Below are positions 32,733-61,755 of a stretch of DNA of 64,000 bases, in pieces. Source of the DNA: an uncultured Alphaproteobacteria bacterium (GTDB taxonomy: Bacteria; Pseudomonadota; Alphaproteobacteria; Rhizobiales; Beijerinckiaceae). The notes beneath the pieces are model-generated. The model worked only from the letters and a program-made list of their open reading frames with translations. It had not been told where the DNA came from and ran no database searches. The stretch's first letter is position 1, and each line of letters begins with the position of its first letter. The stretch is from the NCBI GenBank assembly GCA_963820775.1, contig CAWGBF010000013.1, forward strand, positions 168,258 to 232,257, given 5' to 3'. Made by a program: the position numbers and the translations under genes.

Positions 32733-32745
32733 GAATACCCGCGGT

Positions 32746-34071
32746 TCATTGGGCGGCGGCGCGCATGAGGCAGGCGGCCGCGCGCGTCAGTTCCCGATCG
32801 TACCCTGGCGCAGCGACGGCTTGCACGCCGACAGGCAAGCCTTTGGCGCCAGTCATAAGCGGCAGGCTGTAAGCCGGCGCCCCGATCAGCGTCCATAGGG
32901 TGGCGAAGATCGGATCGCCGGTTCCTTCAGACGCGAGCGGCGCCGAGCCGGAGGCGGCGAAGGTCAGGACGGCGTCGTAGTCCGAAACGCGCTCGACAAG
33001 GCTTGCGCGCAACTGGTCGCGGCGGGTCCAAGCGGCCATGACGTCGGCGCCGGAAAGGGCGCGGCCCGCTCGCACCAACTGCAGGACCAGTTCAGGGACT
33101 TTGGCGCTCGCGCGATCGATGTCGGGGCCGAGCGATTCGGCGACGCCCGCACACATAAGGTCGCGCATCGTAGCGTCGGCGGCGGCGAATTCCGGGCCGA
33201 CTTCGATCGCATCGACGCGCGCGGGCAGTTTCGCGACGAGAGCCGCGAAGGCCTCGCGGGTCGCAGGCTGGGCGCGGGTTTCGAACGGACCCAGCGTGTA
33301 GGCAAGCCGCGGAACTGGCGCGTCGCCGAGCGCGGCATCCAGCATCGAGGCCGTCGGATTGCGCGACAGGGAATCATGTGGATCCTCGCGGGCAATCGCG
33401 TGGACGATGAGCGCCGCGTCGGAGACGCTACGCGCCATGACCCCCGGATGGTCGATCAGCGTCGCTTGCCGCAAGACTCCGGTGCGCGGCAAGACGCCGA
33501 GGCTCGGCTTGAAGCCAACGACGCCACAATAGGAGGCGGGCCGGATGATCGAGCCATTCGTCTGCGTGCCAAGCGCCACGGGCGCAAGCTTCGCGGCGAC
33601 CGCTGCCGCCGATCCGCTCGACGACCCGCCCGGCGTATGCATGGCGTCGTGCGGATTCTTGGTCGGCCCTGGGACGAAGAGCGCATATTGCGAGGTGACG
33701 GTCTTGCCGATGATGATGGCGCCGGCGGCGCGCAACCTGTGGACGATGACGGCGTCCCGGTTCGGCCTCCGGCCAGCGAAGATTTCAGCGCCGAATTCGG
33801 TCGGCATGTCGGCGGTGTCGATGATGTCCTTAACGGCGACGGGCAAGCCATGGAGCGGTCCCGGCGCTAGGTTTGCCGCCCGCGTCTGATCGACGCGTTC
33901 GGCCGCCGCAAGCGCGGCGTCCGAATCGAGATAGGCGAAGGCCTTGAGTTTGGGGTCCAAGGCCGCGATGCGATCGAGAAACGCGCGCATCGTCTCGACC
34001 GCCGTGAGTTCGCCTCGTTGCATGCTGTCCACCAGCGAACATGCGGACAGGTCCAGAATCGGGTGATCCAT
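32746..34071 (-). CDS. Amidase signature family enzyme
   Basis: HGLPVAVKD, PGGSSSGSAAAVA, LGTQTNGSIIRPAS. Confidence 0.92.
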   Translation of the reverse strand: MDHPILDLSACSLVDSMQRGELTAVETMRAFLDRIAALDPKLKAFAYLDSDAALAAAERVDQTRAANLAPGPLHGLPVAVKDIIDTADMPTEFGAEIFAGRRPNRDAVIVHRLRAAGAIIIGKTVTSQYALFVPGPTKNPHDAMHTPGGSSSGSAAAVAAKLAPVALGTQTNGSIIRPASYCGVVGFKPSLGVLPRTGVLRQATLIDHPGVMARSVSDAALIVHAIAREDPHDSLSRNPTASMLDAALGDAPVPRLAYTLGPFETRAQPATREAFAALVAKLPARVDAIEVGPEFAAADATMRDLMCAGVAESLGPDIDRASAKVPELVLQLVRAGRALSGADVMAAWTRRDQLRASLVERVSDYDAVLTFAASGSAPLASEGTGDPIFATLWTLIGAPAYSLPLMTGAKGLPVGVQAVAAPGYDRELTRAAACLMRAAAQ

Positions 34072-37953: not shown

Positions 37954-38180
37954 AGTCTGGCTCCTTTTGCGCTTGCGCGCGACGCAGCGCGGGGCGCGGC
38001 TTCGGTGACTGTCGACTCAAAGCAAGCCGCGTGCCAGATGCGACCCTTTGTAAGCCATTGATTTATATGGGCAGAGCACATCGCCGCGGCGCTTGCATTT
38101 TGCATTTAGAATGCAAAATGATCATTTTCTATGCGCATCGGCGAAGGTATGCGAGATAGGCGATAAAACACGAGGCGACG

Positions 38181-45350: not shown

Positions 45351-45673
45351 CGCCGCGTGTTCGGCATCACTCTGCCTTTGGGACGGCCGGCCCCCACAAG
45401 ATCGAATGGGTTTTCGGATCGACAATCCGCACCACCGTTTTTGGCGGCATGCTCATTTAGGAGATGAACGAGCTCCGTGCATTGAACTCGATGCTGGCCC
45501 GTCTCGGGGTCGGTCCGTTCCCGCACGGCTCTCGCCTGCAAATTGAGCTCCTGGCCGTCGCGCCGCACGATTCGTGGTCAACCGCCGCCGCCTTAGCCTG
45601 CACGCTGCAGTGGGAAATCCCTGAAATCGCAAGGAATCGCTTTCGCTCCAAACTGGCACGCATATTGCGCCGA

Positions 45674-45701
45674 GTATTACGCAATCGTGTTTTCGTAATA
45701 T
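45674..45701. promoter_or_regulatory. Candidate NikR-type operator GTATTA-N16-TAATAT
   Basis: Palindrome TATTACG...CGTAATA ending 18 nt upstream of the operon start; same spacing as the E. coli NikR operator GTATGA-N16-TCATAC; the operon encodes a NikR-like protein. Confidence 0.68.
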
Positions 45702-45719
45702 TAGCAATCGAAGAGCGTC

Positions 45720-46709
45720 ATGCATCGCAATCTGCGTCTCGGTTTCACCTTCGGGCTAATTCTGTCCGGCGTTTTGGCGGTCTCAAAGCCAGCATCGGCC
45801 GCGGGGTTGACGATCGGCTACAGCGATTGGCCGGGATGGGTCGCCTGGCAAGTCGCCATCGACAAAGGCTGGCTCAAGCAGGCCGGCATTGATGCGACGT
45901 TTCAATGGTTCGACTATTCGGCGTCAATGGACGCCTACTCCGCCGGTAAAATCGACGCGGATTTGGTCACCAACGGGGATGGACTTGTCACCGGCGCCGG
46001 CGGCGCCAAGGGCATCATGGTCATGTTGACCGACTATTCCAACGGCAACGACATGATCGTCGGCAAGCCCGGCGTTAAGACCATCAAAGATCTCAAGGGT
46101 AAAAAGGTCGGCGTCGAAACCGGTCTGGTTGAGCATCTCTTGCTGCTCAACGGCCTCAAGGACGCCGGCATGAGCGAACAAGACGTCACGTTGGTGAATG
46201 CAAAGACCAACGAGACGCCGCAAGTGCTGGCCTCAGGTCAGGTCGACGCCATCGGGGCATGGCAGCCTGTTTCGGGAAGCGCGATGAAGGCGCTGCCCGG
46301 TTCGCGGCCAATCTACACTTCGGCTCAGGCCCCCGGACTGATCTACGACGTCCTCTACGCCAGCCCGGCGAGCCTGAGCGCCCATCGCGCCGACTACATG
46401 AAGCTGGCCAAAGTGTGGGATCGCGTCGTTTCCTATATCAACGATCCCAAAACCCAGGACGACGCCGTCAAGATCATGTCGGCGCGGGTCGGGCTGACGC
46501 CAGCCGCCTACAAGCCATTGCTCAAGGGCACCCATCTCATAGGTCTGGCGGAAGGCAAGAAGACCTATGGGAAGGGCGATGGGCTGGCCTCGCTCTATGG
46601 CTCGTCCAAAATCGCCGACGACTTCAACGTGAAGAATGGGGTCTACAAGGCCGCCCAGGACATTGATGCCGCCATCGATCCGTCCGTGACGAACGACGCC
46701 CTGAAATAG
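45720..46709 (+). CDS. ABC substrate-binding protein (urea-carboxylase-region / NMT1-like)
   Basis: Signal peptide; GYSDWPGW, DYSNGNDMI, WQPVS. Confidence 0.88.
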   Translation: MHRNLRLGFTFGLILSGVLAVSKPASAAGLTIGYSDWPGWVAWQVAIDKGWLKQAGIDATFQWFDYSASMDAYSAGKIDADLVTNGDGLVTGAGGAKGIMVMLTDYSNGNDMIVGKPGVKTIKDLKGKKVGVETGLVEHLLLLNGLKDAGMSEQDVTLVNAKTNETPQVLASGQVDAIGAWQPVSGSAMKALPGSRPIYTSAQAPGLIYDVLYASPASLSAHRADYMKLAKVWDRVVSYINDPKTQDDAVKIMSARVGLTPAAYKPLLKGTHLIGLAEGKKTYGKGDGLASLYGSSKIADDFNVKNGVYKAAQDIDAAIDPSVTNDALK

Positions 46710-46735
46710 CGCGATCGGGACCGGCGTAATTCACG

Positions 46736-47695
46736 ATGAAACTGTTTCAACTTCACGTGGCGCTGGCGCCACGCGCGAAGTTCCTGATCGGCGTCTTGTC
46801 CTTCGTGCTGCCGATCGCACTTTGGTGCATCGTGAGTTACGTCCCCGCCGTCTGGCATCCGCAAATGCTAATTACCGATCCCGGCTCCACCGACTATCTG
46901 CAGATCGGCATGCGCATGGACCGCGCGGCTTTTGACAGCGAGGTCGCGGCCGCCAAGGCCGAGGGCCGGGCGCCGCCTGCCGGCGTTCGATCGAATCCGA
47001 TCTATTTGCCTTCGCCCGGCGAAGTCGCAGCCGCGTTCTACCAGTCCTTCACGACGCCGCCGCCAACCCAGGACGGCGAGTGGCTGCATCAAAGCCTCTG
47101 GCACAGCATTCAGATCATTTTCTGGGGCTTCCTGATCTCGTCCATCATCGGCGTGCCGCTCGGAATTCTTTGCGGCGCCTACGCCGCCGTCTCCAGGCTG
47201 TTCGAGCCTTTCGTCGAGTTTTTCCGCTATCTGCCCGCGCCGGCGTTCGGCGCGTTGGCTGTCGCCATCTTGGGCATCTACGATGGGCCGAAAATCACGA
47301 TCATCGTCATCGGCACGCTGTTCCAGCAGATTCTCATCATCGCGAACACGACCCGCAAACTGGACGGCGCGCTGGTTGAAGCCGCCCTCACCCTCGGCGC
47401 CAAGAATTCACAGCTCCTCAGGCGCGTCGTGCTGCCCGGAATTCTGCCTGATCTCTATCGCGATCAGCGCATTCTGCTTGGCTGGGCCTGGACCTATCTG
47501 ATCGTCGCCGAATTGATCGGCACCACAAGCGGCATCACCTGGTTCATCACGCAACAGGCCCGCTACCAGCATTTCCCCAACGTCTATGCGGCGATCACGA
47601 TGATCGGCATCCTCGGCCTGGGCACGGACATGATCCTGGCGCTGCTCAGCCGCCGTTTATTCCCGTGGGACCGGTCTCTTGCAAAATCCAATTGA
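46736..47695 (+). CDS. ABC permease
   Basis: [29 protein letters not shown]. Confidence 0.9.
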
Positions 47696-48623
47696 AGGGC
47701 TGGCGAGGACTCCGTCCAGTTCTGAGGCCGGTCTTTTGCCGTCCTATCTGGATCAGTCGGACGATGTGCGCGAGCGCTTCGACCGTATGAAGGCGCGCGA
47801 TGTCATTCTGAAAGTCGAGCGTCTGGGCAAGACGTTCCAGTCGGCGGCCGGCGCAACGTTGGCGCTCGACGACATCAACTTTTCGACGCATCGGCGCGAA
47901 TTTCAGTGCGTAGTCGGGCCGTCAGGCTGCGGCAAGTCCACCCTTATTCGGATTCTGGCCGGCCTTGAAGAAAAAACCTGCGGCCAAGTCCTGCTGCAGG
48001 GCAAGCCTGTCTCCGGACCCGGCCGCGATCGCGGCATGGTCTTTCAAGGCTATACGCTGTTTCCCTGGCTGACGGTCAAGAAGAACGTGATGTTCGGGCT
48101 GGAAGTCAACGGCGCCGGCGGTCACCAGGCCGAGCGCGAAGCGCTGCAATGGCTGCAACTCGTCGGTCTCGAGAAATTCGCCGACGCCTACCCGCACCAG
48201 CTGTCCGGCGGCATGAAACAGCGCGTCGCGATCGTCCGCGCGCTCGCCAATCAGCCGCGCATTCTTTTGATGGATGAGCCGTTCGGCGCGCTCGACGCAC
48301 AGACGCGCGCACGCATGCAAGCTCATCTTCTGGAGATATGGAAGAAGATCGACATCACCATCATCTTCATCACCCATGACCTCGACGAGGCGATATTTCT
48401 CGGCGACCGCATTCTGGTTCTGTCTCCCCATCCCGGCCGCGTGCAGGAACTGATCGAAGTGCCGGTCCCGCGGCCGCGCACGCCGATGCAATGCATCTTG
48501 CCGGAATTTCTCGCCGCCAAGGCCCGGCTGGAAGAACTCATCCATCAATCGACGGCGCATGACGAGCTTGAAACTTATCCGGCCGTCGTCCGCCTCACGA
48601 ACGTTGCCGACGATGTCGAATAG
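47679..48623 (+). CDS. ABC ATP-binding protein
   Basis: [27 protein letters not shown]; start uncertain. Confidence 0.92.
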
Positions 48624-48632
48624 GCGTCCGCG

Positions 48633-49403
48633 ATGATGTGGTCCGAGCGCAGCTGGGTCGAACTCCCGCACGATCTGGAAAGGGTCGGGCGCGCCGCGAT
48701 CCTGCCCGTCGGCGCGACCGAGCAGCATGGCCCGCATCTGGGCGCGGGCGTCGACGCCGTTCTGGCCGATCGCCTGTGCGCGGAGGCGTCGAAACGCACC
48801 CAGGTGCCGATGCTGCCGACGCTGCCTTACGGCTGCTCGCTCGGGCATAGCCGGCGCTGGGCGGGCGCGCTCGCCGTGCAGCCGGTCACGCTAATCCACT
48901 TCGTCAAGGACATCGGCGAGTGGGCGTATCACAGCGGCGTGCGCCGGCTGTTCATCGTCAACACCCATGTCACCAATGCCGCGCCGTTGCGTTGCGCGCT
49001 TGAAATGCTGCGCAGCGAGCTCGACGACCTGATGGTCGCGCTCATCGATTCTGCAACGGTCAGCGCGCGCGTGCGCGCCGTCCATTTTTCCGACGCCGAG
49101 GATTGGCACGCCAATGACGCCGAAACTTCCCTGATGCTGGAGGTCGCGCCCGAACTCGTGCGCAAGACGCTTGTCACCGCCGCCGACGATCCGGATCGCA
49201 CGACCGGGCTGGTGTTCGCGCATCCCATCAATCGCACCAGCAGCAACGGCGTGACGGGAGCGCCGAGCCGGGCAAGCGCGGACAAGGGTCGGCTCTGGTT
49301 CTCCTGGATGGTGGACGACCTGTGCGCGCAGATCCGCCTGGGCTTGGTGGAAACGCCCCCGCTCGATCATTCCTACTTCGGCAAAGCCGATCAGTCCGAA
49401 TAG
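48633..49403 (+). CDS. Creatininase-family amidohydrolase
   Basis: [33 protein letters not shown]. Confidence 0.88.
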
Positions 49404-49414
49404 GGCACAGACCG

Positions 49415-50776
49415 ATGTACACAAAAGAAAAAATATTCGAGATTGAGCAAAAGTTGCGCGCTCGCGGAATCAAATATTGCATCGGCGCCTATGTCGACAT
49501 CCATGGCGCGCCGAAGGCGAAAGTCGTGCCGCTCTCGCATCTCTCACACATGGCCCACGGTTCGGAGCGCTTTACCGGCTATGCGCTGGACGGCCTCGGC
49601 CAGGCGCCGAACGACGACGAAATCACCTCGCTCCCCGATCTCGATCACATCATTCAATTGCCGTGGGAGCCGAAAGTCGCCTGGCTGCCCGCCGACAATA
49701 TGTTTCAGGGCAAGCCCTATCCCCTAAACACGCGCGTCGCGCTCAAGAATGTCTTGGCGCGGGCCGGGGAACTGGGTTTCGGGTTCAATCTTGGTATTGA
49801 ATGCGAGGTCTATGTTCTCCGGCAGGGCGCCGACGGCGCGCTGTTGGTTCCCAATCCGGATGATAAGCTCGTCAAGCCTTGCTACGACGTGCGTTGCTTT
49901 CTCGACAACTTTACCTGGCTCGACAAGGTGGCGAGCTGCATCAATGATCTCGGCTGGGACCTGCATTCCTTCGATCATGAGGATGCGAACGGCCAATATG
50001 AATTCGACTTCAGTTATGCCGATGCGCTCACAATGTGCGACCGCTTCATTTTCTTCCGCTATATGGCCAAGCATTATGCGCGCGAACAAGGGCTGCTGGC
50101 GACGATCATGCCCAAGCCTTTTGCCGACAAAACCGGCACTGGCGCGCATTTCAACATGTCGCTTTATGATCTCAAGAGCGGCGCAAATATGTTCGCCCGG
50201 TCAGCGTCCGACGATCCGCGCGGCATCGGGCTGACTGAGACCGGCTATCACTTCATCGGCGGCGTGCTGAAGCATGGCCGCGCGCTTTGCGCCGCGTTCG
50301 CGCCCACCGTCAACAGTTACAAGCGTTTGGTGCGCCGGGGCGCGATGAGTTACTTTTCCTGGGCGCCGGTCTTCAATTCCTATGGTTCGAACAATCGCAC
50401 GAATTCGATGCGGGTTCCGGCCGGCGGCGGGCGTTGCGAGTCCCGCAACGCCGACGGCGCCGTCAATCCTTACCTGGCGGCTGCGCTTGTGCTGGCGGCC
50501 GGTCTCGACGGCGTCAAAAACAAGATCGATCCCGGCAGACCCAACGACGACAAGCTCTATGAAATGACCGATGCGGAGCGTCTCGATCGCGGGATCGAGT
50601 TCCTACCGCAGACGCTTCAAGAAGCCGTCGCGGCCTTTGCCGCCGATCCTTTGATCGAAGCAACGTTGGGTAAGGAGCTCCGCGACGAATTCATCAAGTA
50701 CAAAACGATCGAATGGGAATCCTATCATTTGTCTGTCAGCAAATGGGAGATCGAACACTATAGCCATCTCTTTTAG
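49415..50776 (+). CDS. Type III glutamine synthetase-like (GlnT) gamma-glutamyl ligase
   Basis: [40 protein letters not shown]. Confidence 0.88.
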
Positions 50777-50791
50777 ATCGGGAAGGAAACG

Positions 50792-51259
50792 ATGAGCGCC
50801 CACATACGGGGGAACAACAAACCTGTTTCGAGAATCAGTATGTCTCTGCCGGAGACTTTGTTGTGCGATCTCGACCGCATGGTGGAGGAGCGTGGTTTTG
50901 ACAGCCGCTCGCAAGCGATCGCGGACATGCTCTATCAGTCGCTGGTGGAACACAAAAGCGATGTCGGCCAAGATGTCATGGTCGGCGTCGTCACGCTGTT
51001 TTACGACAATTCGGTCGCAGGCCTTCAGAAGCAGCTTGCCGATCTGCAATTTCGCCATATCGCCGAAGTCATCAGTTCGCTGCACGTCCATTTGATGCAC
51101 AATCAGACAATGGAGGTGATCCTGGTGCAGGGCCCGGCGCAAAAGCTCCGCGTGATCGCCGACGAAATGACATCGCGTCGCGGCGTCATTTCCGGGAAAA
51201 TGCATCTGATCGCGGCCCTTATTCCCCAACTTCATCCCTTCCGCCAGGAAAGAGACTAG
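50792..51259 (+). CDS. NikR-like ribbon-helix-helix regulator with degenerate Ni site
   Basis: RISMSLPETLL..LD.MVEERGF.SRSQAI RHH; SSLHVHL kept, but QF replaces QH and TMEV replaces CLE. Confidence 0.85.
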   Translation: MSAHIRGNNKPVSRISMSLPETLLCDLDRMVEERGFDSRSQAIADMLYQSLVEHKSDVGQDVMVGVVTLFYDNSVAGLQKQLADLQFRHIAEVISSLHVHLMHNQTMEVILVQGPAQKLRVIADEMTSRRGVISGKMHLIAALIPQLHPFRQERD

Positions 51260-51260
51260 G

Positions 51261-52074
51261 ATGAGCGAGACAAATCCGACGCCCGAAGACTATCGCCGGC
51301 GCTATTTCGAATTGAAGGCGAAAGCGCGGGAAGCCAACGCCCCTCGTTCATCGGCGATCCAGGCGGCCAACCCGAAGATTTCTGGCCGCCGATCGAATCG
51401 AACGGGAAGAAACGATTCCGGCGGGTTGGTATTGGACGGGTCGCATGAAGCGCGGGCAAAGCCTGCGCATCGTCAATATTCACGCGACGCACGGGGTCTC
51501 GGCATTGTTTTGGAACGCACGCGATACGAGCGAGCGATTCAACCCGGCAGATTCGGTGAAGGTGCAATGGTCGGCTCGGCTTGCGCGCGGAAAACTTCTG
51601 CTTTCGGATATGGGGCGGGTGCTCGCATGCATCACCGACGACACCTGCGGCCAGCATGATTGCGTCGCCGGGGCGAGCACACGCAGCGGCGATGCGCGAA
51701 AATATGGCGCCAATCCCACTCGCCGCAATTCCCACGAGAATTTCGTTCTGGCCGCCGCCAAGCACGGCATGTCGGCGCGTGACGTTGGCCCTTGCATCAC
51801 TTTCTTTGCGCCTGTCGTCACCGATCAGGGCGGTCGCTTCGAATGGCGCGAAGACGCCGTGAAGCCCGGAGATTATGTGGATCTGCGCGCCGAGATGGAC
51901 TTGATCGTGGCGCTGTCCAACTGCCCGCACCCCTTAAGTCCGCGCGGCGATTGGCGCGCTGAACCCGTTCGTGCGTGTCTCTGGCGCTCCCCGGAGGCCG
52001 CCGACGACGATCTTTGTCGCACCGCGACGCAAGAGGCGGTGCGCGCATTCGAGAATACGGCGGCCATGTCATGA
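51261..52074 (+). CDS. DUF1989 protein, carboxyguanidine deiminase subunit CgdA-like; +1 indel near 51380
   Basis: ERFNPADSVKVQW, LLLSDMGRVL, VDLRAEMDLIVALSNCPHP. Removing one T joins the N-terminal ORF in frame. Confidence 0.82.
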
Positions 52075-52715
52075 TGATCGCAAAATCCCTCCTCGATCCG
52101 ACCAAGGCCGCCTACGATCACGTGGTCCCCGCCTGCACGCCGTGGTCCGGTCTCGTGCGCAAAGGACAATGTTTGCGGATCATCGATGTCGCCGGCCAGC
52201 AAGCGGTCGACACGCTGTTTTACCGCGCGGACAAATTCGCCGAACGCTACGACGCCCAGGGCACATTGGCCGCGCAGGGCTCCGCCTATGTCGCCGCGGG
52301 AACGCAACTTCTTTCCAATGAGGGAAATGTGATGGCGACGATGATCGCAGACACCTGCGGCGATCACGATACTTCGGCGGGTGCGTGCAGCTGCGAGGCC
52401 AATACCGTGCGCTTTGGCCACCACACACGCTACATGCACGCCTGCCGCGAAAATTTTCTGATCGAACTGGCCAAATACGGCATGGATAAGCGCGACATCG
52501 TCAGCAACATCAATTTCTTCATGAATGTGCCGATCTTGCCCGACGGCGAATTGGCGATCGTCGATGGGGTGTCCAAGGCGGGTGATTACGTCGAGTTGCG
52601 CGCGGAGATGGATGTGCTTTGCGTCATCTCGAATTGCCCGCAGGTCAACAATCCGTGCAACGGCTTTGATCCCACGCCGATTCGGGTCCTCATCTGGGAC
52701 GCTCCTGGCGATTAA
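52071..52715 (+). CDS. DUF1989 protein, carboxyguanidine deiminase subunit CgdB-like
   Basis: DTCGDHDTSAGACSCEANTVRF, INFFMNVP, SNCPQVNNPCN. Confidence 0.9.
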   Translation: MMIAKSLLDPTKAAYDHVVPACTPWSGLVRKGQCLRIIDVAGQQAVDTLFYRADKFAERYDAQGTLAAQGSAYVAAGTQLLSNEGNVMATMIADTCGDHDTSAGACSCEANTVRFGHHTRYMHACRENFLIELAKYGMDKRDIVSNINFFMNVPILPDGELAIVDGVSKAGDYVELRAEMDVLCVISNCPQVNNPCNGFDPTPIRVLIWDAPGD

Positions 52716-52723
52716 GAACGGCC

Positions 52724-55700
52724 ATGTTCAAAACGGTGCTGGTCGCTAACCGCGGCGAGATTGCAGCGCGCGTCATCCGCACGCTGCGCAGGCTTGGCGT
52801 TCAAGCCGTCGGCGTCGCCTCCGACGCCGACCGGTTCACCGCGCCGATGCGCGACGTCGACAAGCTGGTCAGGCTCGGCGCCGGGCCGGCCGCGGAAACC
52901 TATCTCAATATCGACGCCATCGTCGCCGCCTGCCATGCGACGGGAGCGGAGGCGGTTCATCCAGGTTACGGCTTTCTTTCCGAGAACATCGGCTTTGCCG
53001 GGCGGCTGGCCGCCGAGGGCATCGCGTTCATCGGGCCGCGCCCTGACCATCTCGGCGCCTTTGGCCTGAAACACTCGGCGCGCGAGATTGCCGCGCGTTG
53101 CGGCGTCCCGCTATTGCCCGGCAGCGGCCTTCTCGAGAGCGAGACGCATGCGCAGACCGAAGCGGCGCGCATCGCCTACCCCGTGATGCTGAAGAGCACC
53201 GCGGGCGGCGGCGGCGTCGGCATGCAGCTCTGCCGCACGCCGGGTGAGCTTTCGCAACGCTATGCGAGCGTGGCGCGGCTCGCGTCCAGCAATTTTGCCG
53301 ATGCGCGGCTCTATCTTGAGCGGTTCGTGGCGCGCGCGCGCCATATCGAAGTGCAAATCTTCGGCGACGGCGACGGGGGCGTCGTCGCGCTTGGCGAGCG
53401 CGATTGCTCGTTGCAGCGCCGCAACCAGAAAGTCGTGGAGGAAGCGCCAGCGCCCAATCTGAGCGAGACCATGCGCGAATATCTTCGCGACGCAGCGATC
53501 GCCTTGGGAAAGGCGGTTCGCTATGAATCAGCCGGCACGGTTGAATTCGTCTATGATGTCGAGCGCCAACAGCCCTATTTCCTGGAGGTCAATACGCGCC
53601 TTCAGGTCGAACATCCCGTGACGGAAGAAGTTTTCGGCGTCGATCTTGTCGAATGGATGATCCGCCAGGCGGCGGGCGAATTCACGCTGCCGCCGCAAGC
53701 CGCGTTGACGGCGCGCGGCCATGCCATCGAGGCGCGCCTTTACGCGGAAAATCCGGCGCAGGATTTTCGACCCTCGACTGGCGTCATCACCCAATTGTCT
53801 CTCCCTTCCGACGCGCGCATTGAAAGCTGGATTGAAGCAGGGGTCGAAGTCTCGCCATTCTACGATCCCATGCTCGTCAAGATCATTGCGCATGGCGGCG
53901 ATCGCGCCGCCGCGCTGTCGCGACTGGCGGATGCGCTCGATCAAACCAGCGTATGGGGCGTCGAGACTAACCTTGGCTATCTCCAACAAATCCTGCGTTG
54001 CGAAGCGTTTGGCTCCGGCGTCGCCACCACCGCGACGCTTGGGGATTTCGCCTTCCGGCCCCGCAGCGTCGAGGTGTTGGCGCCCGGCGCGCAATCTAGC
54101 CTGCAGGACTGCCCGGGACGGTTGGGATATTGGGATGTCGGCATTCCGCCGAGCGGTCCGATGGACGAGCGCTCGCACCGGCTCGTTAATAAGATTGTTG
54201 GCAATGACGAAGGCGCTGCGGTGCTGGAATGCACCCTCGCGGGGCCGAGCTTGCGGTTCGTCAGCGACAGCGTGATTGCGCTCGGCGGCGCGATGATGGC
54301 GGCGACGCTCGATGGCGCGCCCGTTCCGTACTGGCGTCCAGTTGACGTGAAGACGGGCCAGGTGCTGGCGCTCGGCCGGGTCGCCGGGAGCGGAATGCGC
54401 GCCTACCTTGCGGTCCGCGGAGGCTTCGACGCGCCACTCTATCTTGGTTCGCGCTCGACTTTCTCGCTGGGGGGGTTCGGCGGCCACGCAACGGGCGTCC
54501 TCAAAGCGGGAGACACGCTGCGCATTCGCCGCGAGCCGGTCTCAGCGGTCATGGACGACATTCCAAGCGATCTGCCCGCCTTGACGGACCGATGGGAGAT
54601 CGGGGTTCTCTACGGCCCCCAGGGCGCTCCGGAGTTTTTCACGAAAGACGACATCGCGTCGCTGTTCGAGGAGGAGTATGAGGTCCATTTCAACAGCGCC
54701 CGCACAGGCGTTCGCCTGATCGGCCCGCGTCCGCAATGGGCGCGCGCCGATGGCGGCGAAGCAGGCTTGCATCCCTCCAACATTCACGACAACGCCTACG
54801 CCGTCGGCGCCATCGATTTTACCGGCGACATGCCGATCATTCTGGGACCAGACGGTCCGAGCCTTGGCGGGTTCGTCTGTCCCGCCGTCGTGGCGAGCGG
54901 CGAACTCTGGAAACTCGGCCAGTTGAAGCCCGGCGACAAAATCGTCTTCCGCGCGATCACGCAAGAGCAGGCGATCGCGCTGCGCGCATCCGCACCCGTG
55001 GTTTTTCCCCGCAAGGCGCCGGAGGGCGATGTTCTTCGCAGCCTGGGTGGGCGCACGCCCAAAGTCGCCTACCGCGCCGCGGGCGACGACTATTTGTTGG
55101 TCGAATATGGAGCGATGACTTTGGACATCGCCTTGCGCTTGCGCGTGCATCTTTTGATGGAAGCCGTGCGCGCCGCTAAACTGCCCGCGATCATCGATCT
55201 GACGCCCGGCATCCGTTCGCTGCAAATCCACTACGACAGCCGGATATTGCCGCGAGCGCGCCTGCTCGAAGCGCTGGTCGCGCTGGAAGGCGATTTGGCG
55301 GATCCGAGGTCCGTGTCCGTGGAAAGCCGGATCGTCCATTTGCCGCTGGCATGGAACGACGAGCAGGCCGTGCTCGCGATGAAGAAATATTGCGAACTGG
55401 TGCGGCCGAACGCGCCCTGGTGCCCGTCGAACATCGAGTTCATTCGCCGGATCAACGGGCTCGAGAGCGAAGATGAGGTCCGCCGAATCGTTTTCGACGC
55501 GAGCTATCTTGTTCTGGGCCTGGGCGACGTCTACCTCGGAGCGCCAGTCGCGACGCCGCTCGATCCGCGCCATCGCCTCGTCACCACCAAGTACAATCCC
55601 GCGCGCACGTGGACGCCCGAAAACGCAGTCGGCATCGGCGGCGCCTATCTCTGTGTATATGGCATGGAGGGTCCGGGCGGTTACCAACTCGTCGGGCGCA

Positions 55701-56272
55701 CCATTCAGATGTGGAATCGCTGGCGGCAAACCGATTGTTTCGAAAAACCCTGGCTGTTGCGTTTCTTCGATCAGCTTCGTTTCTTTCCCGTTTCGGGCGA
55801 GGAACTGGTCGAAGCGCGCGCCGCGTTCCCACACGGCCGCTATCCCCTGCGCATCGAAGAAGGCCGCTTCACGCTACGCGAACACGAGAAATTTCTCGCC
55901 GCCAACGCGGAAGAGATCTCGCGCTTCAAATCTCGACAGCAAAGAGCCTTCTATGCCGAACGCCATCGCTGGCGTGATCTCGGTCTGGATAGCCATGTCG
56001 CCGACGCCGACATGGGGGCATTCCCAATGGTCGAGGAGACTTGGCCGGAAGGCATAAGTCCCGTGCATGCTTCGACCACCGGTACGGTCTGGAAACTAGA
56101 AGTCTCCATCGGCGAACCTGTGATAGCGGGTCAAACGCTTATCGTCACCGAATCGATGAAAATGGAGATCGCAATCACCGCGCCTGTCAGCGGCAAGTTA
56201 CGCGAATTGCGCTGCCAGCCGGGCCGAGTGGTCAGGGCAGGCCAGATCGTTGCGGTGATCGGACAGAACTGA
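52724..56272 (+). CDS. uca: Urea/guanidine carboxylase (biotin-dependent)
   Basis: VANRGEIA, HPGYGFLSEN, FLEVNTRLQVEH, SNIHDNAYAVGAIDFTGD, EGPGGYQ, biotin site ESMKM. Confidence 0.95.
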   Translation: MFKTVLVANRGEIAARVIRTLRRLGVQAVGVASDADRFTAPMRDVDKLVRLGAGPAAETYLNIDAIVAACHATGAEAVHPGYGFLSENIGFAGRLAAEGIAFIGPRPDHLGAFGLKHSAREIAARCGVPLLPGSGLLESETHAQTEAARIAYPVMLKSTAGGGGVGMQLCRTPGELSQRYASVARLASSNFADARLYLERFVARARHIEVQIFGDGDGGVVALGERDCSLQRRNQKVVEEAPAPNLSETMREYLRDAAIALGKAVRYESAGTVEFVYDVERQQPYFLEVNTRLQVEHPVTEEVFGVDLVEWMIRQAAGEFTLPPQAALTARGHAIEARLYAENPAQDFRPSTGVITQLSLPSDARIESWIEAGVEVSPFYDPMLVKIIAHGGDRAAALSRLADALDQTSVWGVETNLGYLQQILRCEAFGSGVATTATLGDFAFRPRSVEVLAPGAQSSLQDCPGRLGYWDVGIPPSGPMDERSHRLVNKIVGNDEGAAVLECTLAGPSLRFVSDSVIALGGAMMAATLDGAPVPYWRPVDVKTGQVLALGRVAGSGMRAYLAVRGGFDAPLYLGSRSTFSLGGFGGHATGVLKAGDTLRIRREPVSAVMDDIPSDLPALTDRWEIGVLYGPQGAPEFFTKDDIASLFEEEYEVHFNSARTGVRLIGPRPQWARADGGEAGLHPSNIHDNAYAVGAIDFTGDMPIILGPDGPSLGGFVCPAVVASGELWKLGQLKPGDKIVFRAITQEQAIALRASAPVVFPRKAPEGDVLRSLGGRTPKVAYRAAGDDYLLVEYGAMTLDIALRLRVHLLMEAVRAAKLPAIIDLTPGIRSLQIHYDSRILPRARLLEALVALEGDLADPRSVSVESRIVHLPLAWNDEQAVLAMKKYCELVRPNAPWCPSNIEFIRRINGLESEDEVRRIVFDASYLVLGLGDVYLGAPVATPLDPRHRLVTTKYNPARTWTPENAVGIGGAYLCVYGMEGPGGYQLVGRTIQMWNRWRQTDCFEKPWLLRFFDQLRFFPVSGEELVEARAAFPHGRYPLRIEEGRFTLREHEKFLAANAEEISRFKSRQQRAFYAERHRWRDLGLDSHVADADMGAFPMVEETWPEGISPVHASTTGTVWKLEVSIGEPVIAGQTLIVTESMKMEIAITAPVSGKLRELRCQPGRVVRAGQIVAVIGQN

Positions 56273-56603
56273 TGAAAGGCACGCACGGGTAGAGACAGCA
56301 GGCGTAGGTAATCGACCAGCCGGTTTCTTCGCATGTTCGAATTGCATGCGCGATGACCGGAACGGTCGGCGCGCTATCATCGGAAAGCTCCACCGGCCGC
56401 TTGAACGGTAGTTCGGCGCCAAAGCTGCGCGCGATGGCGCCGATCTCCTCGTCGTCGGTGGAAACTATGACTTTGTCGAAGAGCTGCGACTGGTAAGCTG
56501 CGCCGATTGCATAGGCGATCATTGGCCTTCCCGCGAACGCCAGCACGTTTTTCCGTGGAATTCGCTTGCTCCCGGCCCGCGCGGGTATGATGGCAACCTT
56601 CAC
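56232..56603 (-). pseudogene. N-terminal fragment of acylneuraminate/pseudaminate cytidylyltransferase (NeuA/PseF)
   Basis: VAIIPARAGSKRIPRKN, VIVSTDDEEI, RPVELSDD; homology ends at CCLYPCVPFI, where the carboxylase gene ends on the opposite strand. Confidence 0.8.
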
Positions 56604-56867
56604 TGGTTCAAATACCCCCTTTTTGAGAGAATTATTCTCGCGGACAGAACTTGAGCCAGCATTCGCCTCGACGCCGATGATTGCCAGATCCGACGTCGCG
56701 GTCGCGCCGTTGTTTTTATATGCGTCCGTCCTGCGTACAACATTTAGCGCAGGGAAGACTTTCGCAAACACATCTTCGCAATCAGGCGGACTCTTGAGAA
56801 AGTGGATGCGCGCCTTGCGCATTGTCGAACGCCTCGCGGGCGCGAAAAACCCCATTTCCTCGTTTGA

Positions 56868-58026
56868 TACCAAGACTCGGTGATCATGACCGATAGGCCC
56901 AGTCCCGAAGGCCGATCGACATGATCCTCCAGGGCTGGTTTATGAGCTTGTTCCATGCTTCGCAGCAGTGATCGACGATGTCGTCGAAGCAATTGAAGAT
57001 CCGATTTGAGAGCCAGTTGTCGCGCAGGAACTGCCAGATGTTTTCCTGCGGGTTGAGCTCTGGGCACTTTGCGGGGAACGGGATCAGCGTCATGTTGGGC
57101 GGGACGATCAATCTGCCGGACAAATGCCAGCCGGCCTGATCGACCAGCAGCACGGCGTGCGCTCTCGGCGCGATCTGGGTGGCGATTTCGGCGAGATGGA
57201 GGTTCATCGCCTCCGTGTTGCAGCGTGGCATGACCAGGGCCGCGCCTTTGCCGTCCTTGGGACAGATCGCGCCGAAGATATAAGCCGAGGCGGTTCGCTG
57301 ATCTTTGGGAGCGCTTGGACGCGCGCCGCGCTTGGCCCAGCGCCGGGTGATCTTGTTCTTCTGGCCGACGCGCGCCTCGTCGGCGAACCAGACCTCTATG
57401 GCGCTGGGCTCGACGTCCTTCTCGCGCCCGATCGCTTCCAGGCGCGCGGAAAAGCTTTTTTAAAATCTTCGATCGCGCCTGCGGCCTGAGCATGATGGCG
57501 GGGACGGGCCGAGAGCTTGCGATAACCCATGGCGCGCAGTTCGCGGCTCAACGTCTGCTTGGCGACGACGACGCGAAACTCCTCGAAAATCCATTGGCAG
57601 AGATCGACAATCCGCCAGCGCACGACCCCATGAACCGCCGGGATCGGGCCGCTCTCGATGATCGCGGCGAGCGCGGCGCGGTGTGCGCCGTTCAGCCGGG
57701 GAGCCTGTCCGGGCGGCTTGCGATCAATCAAGCCTTCCGGTCCATGGGCGTTGAACTTCATCACCCAATCGCGAATGATTTGAAGCGTCACCCCGCCGAT
57801 CTTCGCCGCCTCGGTGCGCGTCGCGCCTTCGTAAACCGCCGCCAGAGCCAAAAGCCGCCTGGCCTGCGGCCCGTCCTTCGACCGCTTGGCCGCAGCTCTC
57901 ACCATCTCAGCGTCATAATCGCCCCGAAGCGGAATGGGCATGGCGAACCTCCTCTGTTCGCCACCTTGAATCAGACGCCAGGCGATTCGGGAATCCCAAC
58001 CGAGTCATCCCTTCAGAGATTTGGTA
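56868..58026 (-). mobile_element. IS630-family insertion sequence
   Basis: Ends TACCAAgaCTC / TACCAAatCTC with TA at both ends; HTH ORF plus DDE ORF. Confidence 0.85.
56884..57941 (-). CDS. IS630 transposase in two ORFs joined by a -1 shift at TTTAAAAAAG (57455-57464)
   Basis: QARRLLAL, IIRDWVMKFN (HTH); WFADEARVG, VDQAGWH, PELNPQENIW (DDE). Confidence 0.85.
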
Positions 58027-58123: not shown

Positions 58124-59408
58124 GGACGCTTCTAAGAACCTCGCGCCTTCCAGCGTTTTCTGATTCACTCCCAGGTGGAGTGGGAGGCGAATCGATGCGT
58201 GGCCAGGGGGGACTTTTCGACGTCGACGAGCGGCTGAAGCGGCTGAGCGATCTCGGCGATCAGTTGCAGGCTTTCGCAGCGGCGGTCGATTTCGAGATTT
58301 TCCGGTCCGAGCTGACGCGGGCGCTGGCCTACTCGGACGGCTCGCAGGGCGGCCGACCGCCGTTCGACCCTGTGATGATGTTCAAGATCCTGGTGATCCA
58401 GGCGGCCAACACCCTCTCGGACGAGCGTACCGAGTTTCTGATCAACGACCGCCTGTCGTTCATGCGGTTTCTCGGGTTGAGCCTATCCGATCGGGTTCCC
58501 GACGCTCGCACGATCTGGCTGTTCCGGGAAAAGCTGACCAGGGCCGAGGCGATTAAGCCACTGTTCGACCGGTTCGACGCGGCGCTGCGCGAGGCTGGCT
58601 ACGTCGCTATGGGCGGCCAGATCGTCGACGCCTCGCTGATCGCCGCGCCCAAGCAGCGCAACACCGAGGAGGAGAAGAAGGCGGTCAAGGAGGGGCGCAT
58701 TCCGCAGGCCTGGAAAGCCCAGCCAGCCAAGCTCCGGCAGAAGGACCGCGACGCGCGCTGGACGGTCAAGTTCAGCAAGGCCAAGGCCAGGCCGGATGGG
58801 ACGGTTCCTCCGGTCGACATCGCCATTCCGACATTCGGCTACCAAAACCATGTCTCGATCGACCGCGAACATGGGCTGATCCGGCGGTGGGAGGCGACCG
58901 ACGCTGCGGCCTACGAGGGCGCGCGGCTGCGTGAGGGGCTGCTCGACAAGACCAACACCGCGAGCGCCGTCTGGGCCGACACGGCCTACCGCTCGAAGGC
59001 CAATGAGGCGTTCCTCGAAAAGAATGGGTTCGTCAGCCGCGTCCATCGCAAGAAGCCGGCGGGCCGGCCCATGCCGGAGACGACGCGGCGCGCCAACGCG
59101 CTCAAGTCCAAAGTCCGCTCCGGCGTCGAACACGTCTTCGCCGTGCAGAAGGACAAGATGGACCTCTTCGTCCGCACCATCGGCATCGCCCGGGCGAAAA
59201 CCAAGATCGGCATGGCCAACCTCGTCTACAACTTCCGCAGGCTCGTCTTCCTCGATCGTCTCGCTGCCGCCTGACCCCCGCGCCAAAGGGCCGCCCGGTC
59301 GCCGCAGCATGCGGCGCCCTATGCCGCATCCAAAACCGAGATCCCGCACCTCAAAATCGCGTCACTCGACCCGTCTCCGTCCGGAAAAACGCGTTTATAG
59401 AACCGTCC
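58124..59408 (+). mobile_element. IS5-family insertion sequence
   Basis: IR GGACGCTTCTAAGAAC / GGACGGTTCTATAAAC (13/16); flanks fit a GGCA-AGCT-TGCC target with AGCT duplication, the left copy missing one base. Confidence 0.85.
58195..59274 (+). CDS. IS5-family transposase
   Basis: GGRPPFD, LSDERTE, VPDARTIW, IVDASLI, WADTAY, RSGVEHVF. Confidence 0.92.
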   Translation: MRGQGGLFDVDERLKRLSDLGDQLQAFAAAVDFEIFRSELTRALAYSDGSQGGRPPFDPVMMFKILVIQAANTLSDERTEFLINDRLSFMRFLGLSLSDRVPDARTIWLFREKLTRAEAIKPLFDRFDAALREAGYVAMGGQIVDASLIAAPKQRNTEEEKKAVKEGRIPQAWKAQPAKLRQKDRDARWTVKFSKAKARPDGTVPPVDIAIPTFGYQNHVSIDREHGLIRRWEATDAAAYEGARLREGLLDKTNTASAVWADTAYRSKANEAFLEKNGFVSRVHRKKPAGRPMPETTRRANALKSKVRSGVEHVFAVQKDKMDLFVRTIGIARAKTKIGMANLVYNFRRLVFLDRLAAA

Positions 59409-59476: not shown

Positions 59477-61755
59477 TCATTCCAATATTGGCTGAGAATT
59501 CCGCCGCAGAATTGTGACATTTCCGTAGCTGACCGACTTCGGTAACAATGGTAGCAAAATCTCCTCAATCAGAACTAGAAGATCTTTCGCTTCCTTATGC
59601 GCAAGCAGCGCATCTAGTTGACGGTTAAATTCGCCAATACCACGCCTGCCCAACGCCTTCCACAGAAAGGCGTTGTTGAGAAGGAGTCCGTACGGCGCGA
59701 TTTGCACCACCTCCAGGCCGCATTCAGCAGCCTTTTTGTGCATCTCTTGCTCGTGAGCAACGGCATAGAACTTTGCGGGATCACCTACATCACCACAATA
59801 AGGAAAATCATCCTGGCTTCCAAGATTCGGATCGCACGCATTCACGTGCTCGCGATTGCCGAAATCGAACAGAACGATTCCCCCGGCACGCGTGGGTCAA
59901 GGCGCGGATTTGCTGGAAACGCGGGGCTGGGATGACCGGGCCAGTGGCGTGGTGGAAGTCTGATATTCGTCGTTGAGATCCTTTCGAACGGCGGCGATCT
60001 GGCGCAGTTCGAACTCGGTGAAGCGCAAGCCGCGCCAGCGCTCGGCGGCTCGAATGAGCGCGCCGAACATAAGCTTGAGCACCGGCTTCTCGCCGTTCGA
60101 GCAGATTCGTCGTGCGAACGAAGCGGCGATGGGTGACCGGCAATCTCAGGTGCGCGATGCACGCCTCGAAATCGTCCTCGAAACAGGCGAGCGCGCTCGG
60201 CAGGAGATCGGCGTCGTCGGCGCGGATGCCGGCCGCCAGTTGGCGGGCAATCGCCCGCGACGGCGCCTGATAGCAGGCGCTGACGCGCGCCTTGGGCCAT
60301 AGGTCGGTCGGGACCTTCACCGCGAGGTTGCGCATGCGGTGCGCCAGGCAGCGCTGGCGCGCCGAGCGTGGAAAACATTCCTCGATCGCCCGGATGATCC
60401 CCGGCGCGCCGTCGGATACGACGAGCAACGGATCGCCGAGCCCGCGGGCGCGCAGATCCTGGAAGAACGCGCGCGCCGTCTCGACGTCCTCCTTGGAGCC
60501 CGCCATCAACGCCAACAGGACCTTGCGCCCGTCCTCGCCAATCCCCCAGGCTGCGAGCACGGCCTCACGCCGCTGGCCGGGCCGCAGCCGCTCAGCGATG
60601 CCGTCGACGATGGCGTGCTCGGAAAGATCGCGTTTGCAGAAGTCCTCATATTCGGCCCACAGCCGCTCGGTGATCTCGCTGACTGCCGCCCGCGATAGAA
60701 GCCGTCGGCCCGTCTCGTCGGTGAACGCATCCTCGATGTCGCGCGTCGACAGGCCTCGCGCGTAAAGTTCGACCGCCAGCCGCTCAAGTTCGCGCGTGCG
60801 CCCCGAAAGCGCCGCCCGCACGCCCGAAACAAAGGGTTCGGGCGTGTCGCGAACCTGCGGCGCCGAATATTCCACCGCGCCCTCCGCGGTCTTCACCTTG
60901 CCCGGCCGATAGCCGTTGCGGTAGCCGGCCTTTTCGCCGGCGCCGCGCTCATAACGCTCGCGGCCAAGGACATCGGAGACCTCGCCCTCGAGCGCCTCCT
61001 CGACGATCAGGCGCAGCGCCAGGCGGACCAGATCGCTTCGCCCCGCCGCCGTTCCCAAATCTCCGTTCATCAAGGCGCGAAGCTCCTCGCGCGTGCGTTC
61101 GGGTGCGGATAGTCTCTCCATCGGGATGCTCCCTGGGGCCTCCGGCGCCAACCGAAAGCCCGTTCTCCTGCTTCTCTTCAGGAAGGGTGCATCCCAACCC
61201 CATTTTCCAGCAAGCCTACGCCTTCACCGCACGCGTGACCCTGGCTTTTTCCCGAAGTATCCTAGGCCAGTCGGGAAAGTGCTGGAGGAACATGCGGGAG
61301 CTGACCACATCGAACTCTCCATTTTCTGCCGGAATGTCGGCGCCATTGCCTTGGCGCAGCTCGAAAGCCCGCTCTCCGCGTTCGGCCGACAATCTGCTCA
61401 GCATTCCCGAGCTCACGTCGCAAGCGACGACCCTATAACCAAGGTCATGCAGCGCAATCGATATCAACCCGGTGCCACAGCCAAGGTCCAGGATGCGCGC
61501 GCCAGGATCTGCATTGCGCTGCACATAACGGACGTAAAGATCACGGCGCAGCAGCTTGAAAAGCTCCGACGCCCCGATGGTGGCTGCGTGGTACCGGTCG
61601 GCGTCCTGTCGGGTCGCCCAGGCGCCAGTCTTGAACCCGGAAATTCCGCTCGAATCAGGTTCTCGCGTACTTTTCCCGGCAGCTGAAACCAACCTCCTGA
61701 GGCTGAATTGGCGAACGATGAAAGTGGGAAAAGCCGGTAGCCATCCGCCTCCCAA
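59477..61755 (-). pseudogene. Class I SAM-dependent methyltransferase interrupted by IS256
   Basis: ILDLGCGTG...EKARVTRA joins in frame to GGIVLFDFGN... once the IS and one TSD copy are removed; start codon uncertain. Confidence 0.82.
59895..61228 (-). mobile_element. IS256-family insertion sequence with degraded transposase (61121-59897)
   Basis: 25-bp IR, 20/25 identical (GGTCAAGGCGCGGATTTGCTGGAAA vs GGTGAAGGCGTAGGCTTGCTGGAAA); 9-bp TSD GCACGCGTG (59886-59894, 61229-61237); YRNGYR, SDGAPG, QRCLAH, RTTNLLER, with small deletions. Confidence 0.9.

Follow-up and report, generated by a model that had tools for sequence, protein, structure and literature searches.

A 64,000-nucleotide stretch of DNA from an uncultured alphaproteobacterium of the family Beijerinckiaceae (contig CAWGBF010000013.1, positions 168,258 to 232,257; hereafter the window, with positions counted from its first nucleotide) contains a variant of the published guanidine carboxylase operons, for which Schneider et al. 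(2020) and Sinn et al. (2021) are reportedly the sources. Nine tightly packed genes on the + strand, which together with the control elements in front of them span positions 45654-56272, form one operon with intergenic gaps of -17 to +26 nucleotides. Between the importer genes and cgdA lie the genes of a creatininase-fold metallohydrolase and of a glutamate-amine ligase, with the gene of a NikR-like regulator after the ligase. All genes named in the original prediction, which was made from the sequence of the window, are present on the + strand; the NikR-like gene, the promoter, the operator, and a frameshift in cgdA were not part of it.

45654-45668, +: sigma-54-type -24/-12 promoter, TGGCACGCATATTGC, exact match to TGGCAC-N5-TTGC
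45677-45698, +: palindromic operator TTACG-N12-CGTAA, presumed site of the NikR-like repressor (motif match)
45720-46709, +: periplasmic binding protein of an ATP-binding cassette (ABC) importer of the NitT/TauT (SsuA/NMT1) type (PF09084, PF13379)
46736-47695, +: ABC permease (PF00528)
47679-48623, +: ABC ATPase (PF00005)
48633-49403, +: creatininase-fold metallohydrolase (PF02633, 214 bits)
49415-50776, +: GmaS/GlnT-type ATP-dependent glutamate-amine ligase with an altered amine pocket (TIGR03105, 635 bits; cut-off 470)
50792-51259, +: NikR-like ribbon-helix-helix regulator (PF08753, 82 bits; NF003381, 118 bits, over the cut-off)
51261-52074, +: cgdA, UAAP1-type carboxyguanidine deiminase subunit, with a +1 frameshift (TIGR03425, 255 bits; cut-off 206)
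52071-52715, +: cgdB, UAAP2-type carboxyguanidine deiminase subunit (TIGR03424, 326 bits; cut-off 285)
52724-56272, +: biotin-dependent guanidine carboxylase (TIGR02712, 1781 bits; cut-off 1304)

The ATG of cgdB overlaps the stop codon of cgdA. The family matches of the ATPase begin at residues 44-63 of the frame that opens at 47679, and its true start is probably later. A search with the hydrolase has identified 80 related loci of 55-96% identity in Alpha-, Beta-, Gamma- and Zetaproteobacteria, Verrucomicrobia, and others.

Carboxylase branch and importer

The carboxylase matches TIGR02712 over its full length (profile positions 1-1200), including the biotin carboxylase, carboxyltransferase, and biotin carrier parts, and has the biotinyl-lysine motif SMKME at residues 1145-1147. 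According to the published criterion, guanidine carboxylases have aspartates at the positions equivalent to 1330 and 1584 of the Kluyveromyces lactis urea carboxylase, and urea carboxylases have Asn1330 (PMC11410670; see also PMC12186494). In the alignment to the K. lactis enzyme (3va7/5i8i), Asp698 from the motif GAIDFTGD (residues 695-702; Asp698 codon at 54815-54817) corresponds to Asn1330 of GAINFTGD, and Asp935 corresponds to Asp1584. The alignment assigns the carboxylase the guanidine (Asp) signature at both positions, in agreement with the original prediction, which had taken the aspartate of the motif as a mark of the guanidine type. The accompanying CgdAB-like pair, also predicted, consists of adjacent DUF1989 subunits, one of the UAAP1 type and one of the UAAP2 type, which both score over the cut-offs of their families.

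Operons of the guanidine carboxylase pathway that combine an importer, CgdAB, guanidine carboxylase, and allophanate hydrolase occur in Pseudomonas syringae, Raoultella terrigena, and Vreelandella boliviensis (PMC12508155). The operon in the window resembles them in having an ABC importer from the same superfamily, CgdAB, and a carboxylase with aspartate at both signature positions. It departs from them in that two additional enzymes are encoded between the importer genes and cgdA, that a sigma-54 promoter and a protein regulator stand in for the guanidine-I riboswitch, that the score of its binding protein falls below the TIGR03427 cut-off, and that the allophanate hydrolase is encoded on another contig.

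No allophanate hydrolase is encoded within the window, as had been noticed from its sequence; however, the genome encodes a bona fide enzyme on contig C11 (181567-183141; TIGR02713, 759 bits, cut-off 511), and the missing step is therefore supplied from elsewhere in the genome. An allophanate hydrolase-like gene, belonging to a cluster of proteins of about 600 residues that was assigned without a family scan, is present in 21 related loci, usually directly 3' of the carboxylase. An amidase-signature gene in the window (approximately 32722-33933, -) was rejected as a hidden allophanate hydrolase, with 173 bits against the cut-off of 511 and one in-frame TGA; it is possibly a pseudogene or contains a sequencing error. 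On C11, the allophanate hydrolase is clustered (171508-185366) with two more amidase-signature genes, a 127-residue NTF2-like protein, a hydantoin-racemase-like protein, and a sugar-type ABC transporter. The cluster calls to mind the AtzE/AtzH/AtzF genes, which serve the breakdown of cyanuric acid or biuret.

The binding protein reaches 141 bits against TIGR03427, with a cut-off of 334, and is not of the standard carboxylase-associated type. Its orthologues, of 62-69% identity, are found 3' of guanidine-I riboswitches, and, as judged from such sequence comparisons, guanidine is the probable cargo of the importer. In Mariprofundus ferrooxydans and one metagenome-assembled genome (MAG) from the Zoogloeaceae, the hydrolase and ligase genes occur with a standard TIGR03427 importer and without the importer type of the window.

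The gene cgdA contains an extra T at 51379, which places its first 39 codons in one frame and the DUF1989 body in another; the TIGR03425 match covers the gene from 51445 on. The window has TTT at this position, and the 96%-identical locus L011, in which cgdA is an intact 270-residue gene, has TT. The downstream frame of cgdA has no alternative start codon. It is rather unlikely that the frameshift is real and the carboxylase branch dead in this organism, with the operon decaying or only its importer, hydrolase, and ligase in use. The extra T, the lack of another start, the insertion sequences just downstream of the operon, and the location of allophanate hydrolase outside it would fit such decay. 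However, all the other genes of the operon are intact, and L011 in turn carries a one-base indel, at window position 46331, in the gene of its binding protein (L011:7086-8096). The window copy of the binding protein matches the family profiles to the end, unlike that of L011, the C-terminus of which is probably scrambled. Because L011 carries its own indel where the window copy is intact, single-base indels in these assemblies may be assembly errors, and the frameshift at 51379 may be one of them.

The similarity of the window to L011 extends from 45530 to 56276 (L011:6897-17645; 95.9%), beginning 190 nucleotides 5' of the operon and ending four nucleotides past the stop codon of the carboxylase. 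Transposase genes are present downstream of the operon in both genomes; in the window, they are located at 58180-59274 (+, DUF772/DDE_Tnp_1) and 59808-61151 (-, Mutator family). Since the similarity is limited to this segment and transposases follow it, the flanks have been reshuffled, and the operon looks like a moved cassette or one with rearranged flanks. A truncated cytidylyltransferase-like frame is located at 56232-56873 (-).

Sigma-54 promoter and NikR-like regulator

Two exact matches to TGGCAC-N5-TTGC are present in the window, against 0.21 expected. The first precedes the operon, and the second (TGGCACGCGGCTTGC; 38022-38036, -) is upstream of other genes. Of 55 related loci, 27 have an element with at most one mismatch upstream of the binding-protein gene, against a background of 0.008 per 260 nucleotides. 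The sigma-54 promoter suggests that the operon is controlled by nitrogen limitation.

The operator starts eight nucleotides past the -12 element and is the sole match to TTACG-N12-CGTAA in the window. Of the 38 loci with a NikR-like gene, 30 have the site, with at most one mismatch, 35-100 nucleotides upstream of the gene for the binding protein; of the 17 loci without a NikR-like gene, two have it (background of 0.002 per 260 nucleotides). Because the presence of the operator is tied to that of the NikR-like gene, it is presumed to be the binding site of the NikR-like repressor. In 21 loci, the distance from the sigma-54 element to the operator downstream of it is 8-17 nucleotides.

The regulator resembles NikR repressors in its ribbon-helix-helix and C-terminal domains, in the palindromic operator with a fixed spacer, and in its NF003381 score. 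The nickel site was compared with what we take to be the Escherichia coli NikR sequence: His76', His87, His89, and Cys95 correspond to Phe, His, His, and Thr in the window, and Cys95 is absent from all 40 homologues of the regulator. Lacking His76 and Cys95 of the high-affinity site, the NikR-like protein is predicted to be unable to bind nickel in the canonical way. It also differs from NikR in that the genes that it regulates are unrelated to nickel and that it stands in the place of a guanidine riboswitch.

No Rfam match to a guanidine-I, -II, -III, or -IV aptamer has been found in the window. By contrast, in all 11 Methylobacterium/Methylorubrum loci that are without a NikR-like gene, the binding-protein gene is preceded by a guanidine-I riboswitch (76-81 bits, against a gathering score of 63) and cgdA by a guanidine-II riboswitch. 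In locus L042, the guanidine-I aptamer ends approximately 440 nucleotides before the start codon, with no convincing gene in between. None of the seven NikR-bearing loci tested has a guanidine-I element. The NikR-like protein takes the place of the guanidine-I riboswitch of orthologous operons, and this position makes it a candidate for sensing guanidine or an intermediate of the pathway. At the position of the NikR-like gene, after the ligase, a EutQ-like cupin (PF05899) is encoded in the riboswitch-controlled operons of 13 Methylobacterium/Methylorubrum loci, one of them L030 (12169-12540).

Hydrolase and ligase

The hydrolase has the fold that the original prediction had called creatininase-like. 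Its AlphaFold model (mean predicted local distance difference test score of 87.6) can be superimposed on creatininase with a template-modeling score of 0.82 at 26% sequence identity. The characterised creatininase CrnA from Pseudomonas putida (1j2t, 1q3k) cleaves an amide bond within a cyclic acylguanidine. The hydrolase has four of CrnA's five metal ligands (Glu34, His36, Asp45, and His120) and the catalytic histidine (His178), all of them invariant among its homologues, and it also retains Glu183. By contrast, six residues that we take to be the creatinine contacts in the CrnA structures are all lost. Among 70 homologues of the hydrolase, Ser78 is replaced by Leu or Ile, Tyr121 by Val, Glu122 by Thr or Ser (Thr in the window), and Trp174 by Ala, and Trp154 and Asp155 are deleted. 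Because of these losses, the hydrolase is not a creatininase despite its fold, and creatinine, considered as its substrate, was rejected as unlikely on the same residues. The score against the creatininase equivalog TIGR04448, 112 bits, is below the cut-off of 235. The hydrolases have new invariant motifs, GCSxGHSRRW, DAEDWHAN, and ADDPDRT, of which DAEDWH and ADDPDR are acidic.

The solved structures nearest to the ligase are those of methylamine ligases, 9qur (378 bits) and 7cql (342 bits). The roles of residues were taken from the methylamine ligase RhGmaS (7cql; PMC7948447) and compared across 74 homologues of the ligase. Lys30', Tyr147, Asp177, Glu179, Glu186, Trp300, and Arg312 are invariant in all 74. 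All of them also have Ser in place of Gln175, Asp in place of Asn188, Thr in place of Ala48', and Phe in place of Trp189. The ligase therefore retains five of the seven residues of the methylamine pocket (Tyr147, Gln175, Asp177, Glu179, Glu186, Asn188, and Lys30'), with Gln175 and Asn188 replaced. The ammonium-binding Asp50' of glutamine synthetases is Thr, and the catalytic glutamate of the Glu-flap is Trp, in 74 of 74. The combination of Asp177, Glu186, Arg312, and Trp300 in place of the flap glutamate is that of GmaS catalysis, so the enzyme predicted to be a type III glutamine synthetase or GlnT-like protein is more precisely assigned to the GmaS type. The aligned residues point to a ligase of the GmaS type whose amine pocket is larger and more acidic; specificity of the enzyme for either ammonia or methylamine is unlikely. 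The change of Asn188 to Asp parallels the Asn-to-Asp switch from urea to guanidine in the carboxylase.

Unlike GmaS, its best relative, the ligase is encoded away from genes of the N-methylglutamate pathway and next to the creatininase-fold hydrolase. There are no N-methylglutamate synthase or dehydrogenase genes in the operon and no clear ones in the genome, which also has no second TIGR03105-type ligase. Beyond the large glutamate synthase gene, the only other GXGXG-domain match in the genome scores 38 bits. The lack of a second ligase and the weakness of this match make a route for using gamma-glutamylmethylamide doubtful.

The hydrolase-ligase pair is conserved well beyond the window. The ligase gene is adjacent to that of the hydrolase in 77 of the 80 loci. 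Within 10 kilobases of the hydrolase, the binding protein is encoded in 64 loci, the permease in 61, the ATPase in 65, the NikR-like regulator in 46, CgdA and CgdB in 49, and the carboxylase in 44; these counts are lower bounds, as several loci are on short contigs. Of 15 genomes without a carboxylase at the locus, 13 have one elsewhere (nine over the cut-off and four as fragments at contig ends), which brings the carboxylase to 57 of 59 evaluated carrier genomes. The exceptions are Acidisoma silvae (L040) and a gammaproteobacterial MAG (L060). By comparison, among 300 evenly drawn Alphaproteobacteria, the carboxylase is present in 11 (3.7%) and an orthologue of the hydrolase in two. The association of the pair with the carboxylase is far beyond chance. 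All 41 complete carboxylases linked to the loci are of the Asp type; together with the co-occurrence, this ties the pair tightly to the guanidine carboxylase pathway. The original prediction had staked itself on the joint occurrence of these genes in other genomes, and they do occur together.

The hydrolase is absent from 10 of the 11 carboxylase-bearing Alphaproteobacteria in the sample, and the pair is dispensable for the carboxylase pathway in most organisms that have this pathway. The two enzymes are thus a conserved addition to the pathway and not a requirement, in line with the earlier remark that they are not needed for plain guanidine. Urease was considered as a required partner of the pair and rejected, with ureC in 17 of 28 carrier genomes; both carriers without the carboxylase have ureC, but two genomes are too few.

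Possible roles of the pair in guanidine use

The recognition of guanidine as a widespread nitrogen source is recent, and two routes of its breakdown are known, the carboxylase pathway and the nickel guanidinase. The operon very probably serves the use of guanidine as a nitrogen source through import, carboxylase, CgdAB, and allophanate hydrolase, with sigma-54 and NikR-like control in the place of the riboswitch. The sigma-54 promoter would place the operon under nitrogen-limitation control, with the NikR-like repressor acting on the operator just after it. The ABC importer would take up guanidine, the Asp-type carboxylase would convert it to carboxyguanidine, and CgdAB would convert carboxyguanidine to allophanate, the breakdown of which would be completed by the allophanate hydrolase encoded on the other contig.

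For the pair, it is tentatively proposed that the ligase gamma-glutamylates guanidine at the expense of ATP and that the hydrolase cleaves an acylguanidine, a chemistry that we would sooner expect to be revised than confirmed. It is put forward as a proposal on top of the observed gene content, residue signatures, co-occurrence, and regulatory elements. In an ATP-consuming step, the GmaS-derived ligase would couple glutamate with guanidine, or a very close derivative of it, and produce gamma-glutamylguanidine. Acylation would render the very stable guanidinium hydrolysable, by the same logic as carboxylation followed by CgdAB. The creatininase-fold enzyme would then hydrolyse this linear acylguanidine, as its characterised relative cleaves the cyclic acylguanidine creatinine. 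The operon-level reading and this chemistry, taken together, are the best explanation as a whole, with nearly even prospects of being correct.

Coupling of a glutamine-synthetase-like ligase to a hydrolase of the gamma-glutamyl conjugate is also found in PuuA/PuuD for putrescine, IpuC/IpuF for isopropylamine, and AtdA1/AtdA2 for aniline. However, the hydrolases of the PuuD, IpuF, and Atd types are of the glutamine amidotransferase type, and that of the window has the creatininase fold; moreover, there is no oxidising step between the ligase and the hydrolase in the window.

Several points weigh against the proposed use of guanidine by the operon and its pair. The main objection is that the pair is found without the carboxylase in only 2 of 59 genomes. 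A self-sufficient route would make such genomes common, and a dependent or accessory role therefore fits better than a parallel route. Furthermore, a ligase that makes and a hydrolase that cleaves the same acyl bond form a futile cycle, so the proposal requires an attack of the hydrolase on the guanidino carbon, a reaction without precedent in the creatininase fold. The argument from the ligase pocket is built on a sequence alignment. Control by guanidine-I riboswitches in orthologous operons does not, by analogy, prove free guanidine to be the substrate: V. boliviensis has a methylguanidine-degrading operon that is also located behind a guanidine-specific riboswitch (PMC12508155). The frameshift of cgdA in the assembly means that the carboxylase branch may be broken in the organism. 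A literature search has found no paper on the hydrolase-ligase pair in the context of guanidine, on gamma-glutamylguanidine, or on a creatininase with guanidine or ykkC.

A stronger version of the gamma-glutamylation proposal, which is doubtful, is that the pair provides a third activation of guanidine that depends on neither biotin nor nickel. The ligase would produce gamma-glutamylguanidine (5-oxo-arginine), the metallohydrolase would split its guanidino group, and guanidine would have its first protein sensor in the NikR-like regulator. The nitrogen would be delivered as glutamine, or as ammonia and a ureido compound cleared by the carboxylase/allophanate hydrolase branch or by urease.

It is unlikely that the pair feeds the carboxylase from an imported acyl-, alkyl-, or cyclic guanidine, with the hydrolase freeing guanidine and the ligase capturing the co-released amine, which in the original prediction was methylamine. 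A feeder would need a carboxylase in the genome, as the pair nearly always has. The non-standard binding protein, the GmaS-like ligase without an ammonium site, the guanidine-riboswitch control of methylguanidine-degrading operons (PMC12508155), and oxygenase genes near the pair in some loci also favor it. These are 2-oxoglutarate dioxygenases in Mariprofundus and Hyphomicrobium and desaturase-like enzymes behind guanidine-II riboswitches in L062 and L078. However, the cyclic candidate creatinine is unlikely in view of the lost contact residues of the hydrolase. The two loci that have the pair with a standard importer and no other, and the orthologous operons behind guanidine-I riboswitches, also speak against a feeder route. 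A substituted guanidine may still be the true substrate, given the V. boliviensis riboswitch and the oxygenase neighbors. The capture of methylamine is poorly supported, since Gln175 and Asn188 of the pocket are replaced in every homologue, the further use of gamma-glutamylmethylamide is doubtful, and the known methylguanidine route gives formaldehyde and not an amine (PMC12508155). Hydrolysis of an acylguanidine releases an acid instead of an amine, and the ligase would then lack a role.

It is improbable that the pair is a safety valve, in which the ligase reversibly conjugates guanidine to glutamate when uptake outruns the carboxylase, so that toxic guanidinium is kept low, and the hydrolase releases it again. 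Such a valve needs exactly a ligase and a hydrolase acting on the same acyl bond, and a high-affinity importer and the carboxylase accompany the pair in almost all cases. The aniline dioxygenase system offers a parallel, in which a glutamine-synthetase-like ligase is paired with a hydrolase that removes excess gamma-glutamylanilide. However, ATP would be spent without net gain, most carboxylase-bearing Alphaproteobacteria of the sample (10 of 11) manage without the pair, and excess guanidine is normally handled by Gdx exporters (PMC12186494).

The two enzymes can hardly be ordinary helpers, that is, a glutamine synthetase assimilating pathway ammonia and an unrelated amidase: although TIGR03105 is named type III glutamate-ammonia ligase in NCBIfam, the carboxylase pathway releases three ammonia per guanidine (PMC12186494; PMC11410670), and RhGmaS accepts ammonium weakly (PMC7948447), the replacement of Asp50' by Thr and of the flap glutamate by Trp in all 74 homologues speaks against plain ammonia assimilation, which was rejected on these residues, and the adjacency of hydrolase and ligase in nearly every locus argues for consecutive steps.

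The gamma-glutamylation proposal concerns two conserved enzymes that form part of guanidine operons in methylotrophs, in oxidisers of sulfur and iron, and in soil bacteria, where they are switched on by guanidine riboswitches or, in the window, by a repurposed nickel regulator. Their reaction, once worked out, would either close a gap in the guanidine pathway or bring a new pathway to light, and it would correct the annotations "creatininase" and "type III glutamine synthetase" throughout this gene family. The NikR-like regulator is a testable candidate for a guanidine-sensing protein.

Additional genes accompany the pair in some loci. A gene of a fatty-acid-desaturase-like membrane di-iron protein is located directly behind a guanidine-II riboswitch and is followed by that of a conserved 280-residue protein without a Pfam match (L062:12292-14289, L078:4928-7695). 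The two genes accompany the hydrolase-ligase module in 13-15 loci and, by analogy with MgdH/MgdL, could form an oxygenase module for alkylguanidines. The genome of the window has a 94% copy of the desaturase-like gene at C14:110953-112736, with a different, TIM-barrel-like neighbor. Dioxygenases dependent on 2-oxoglutarate and Fe(II) (DIOX_N and 2OG-FeII_Oxy) adjoin the pair in Mariprofundus ferrooxydans (L070:7706-8986) and in a Hyphomicrobium MAG (L031:5210-6253). They are 47% identical to each other, have a 38% homologue on contig C6 of the window genome, and may be related to methylguanidine hydroxylase. In the gammaproteobacterial MAG without a carboxylase, the ligase is followed by a MOSC-domain protein (L060:12321-13235); MOSC enzymes reduce N-hydroxylated guanidines and amidines.

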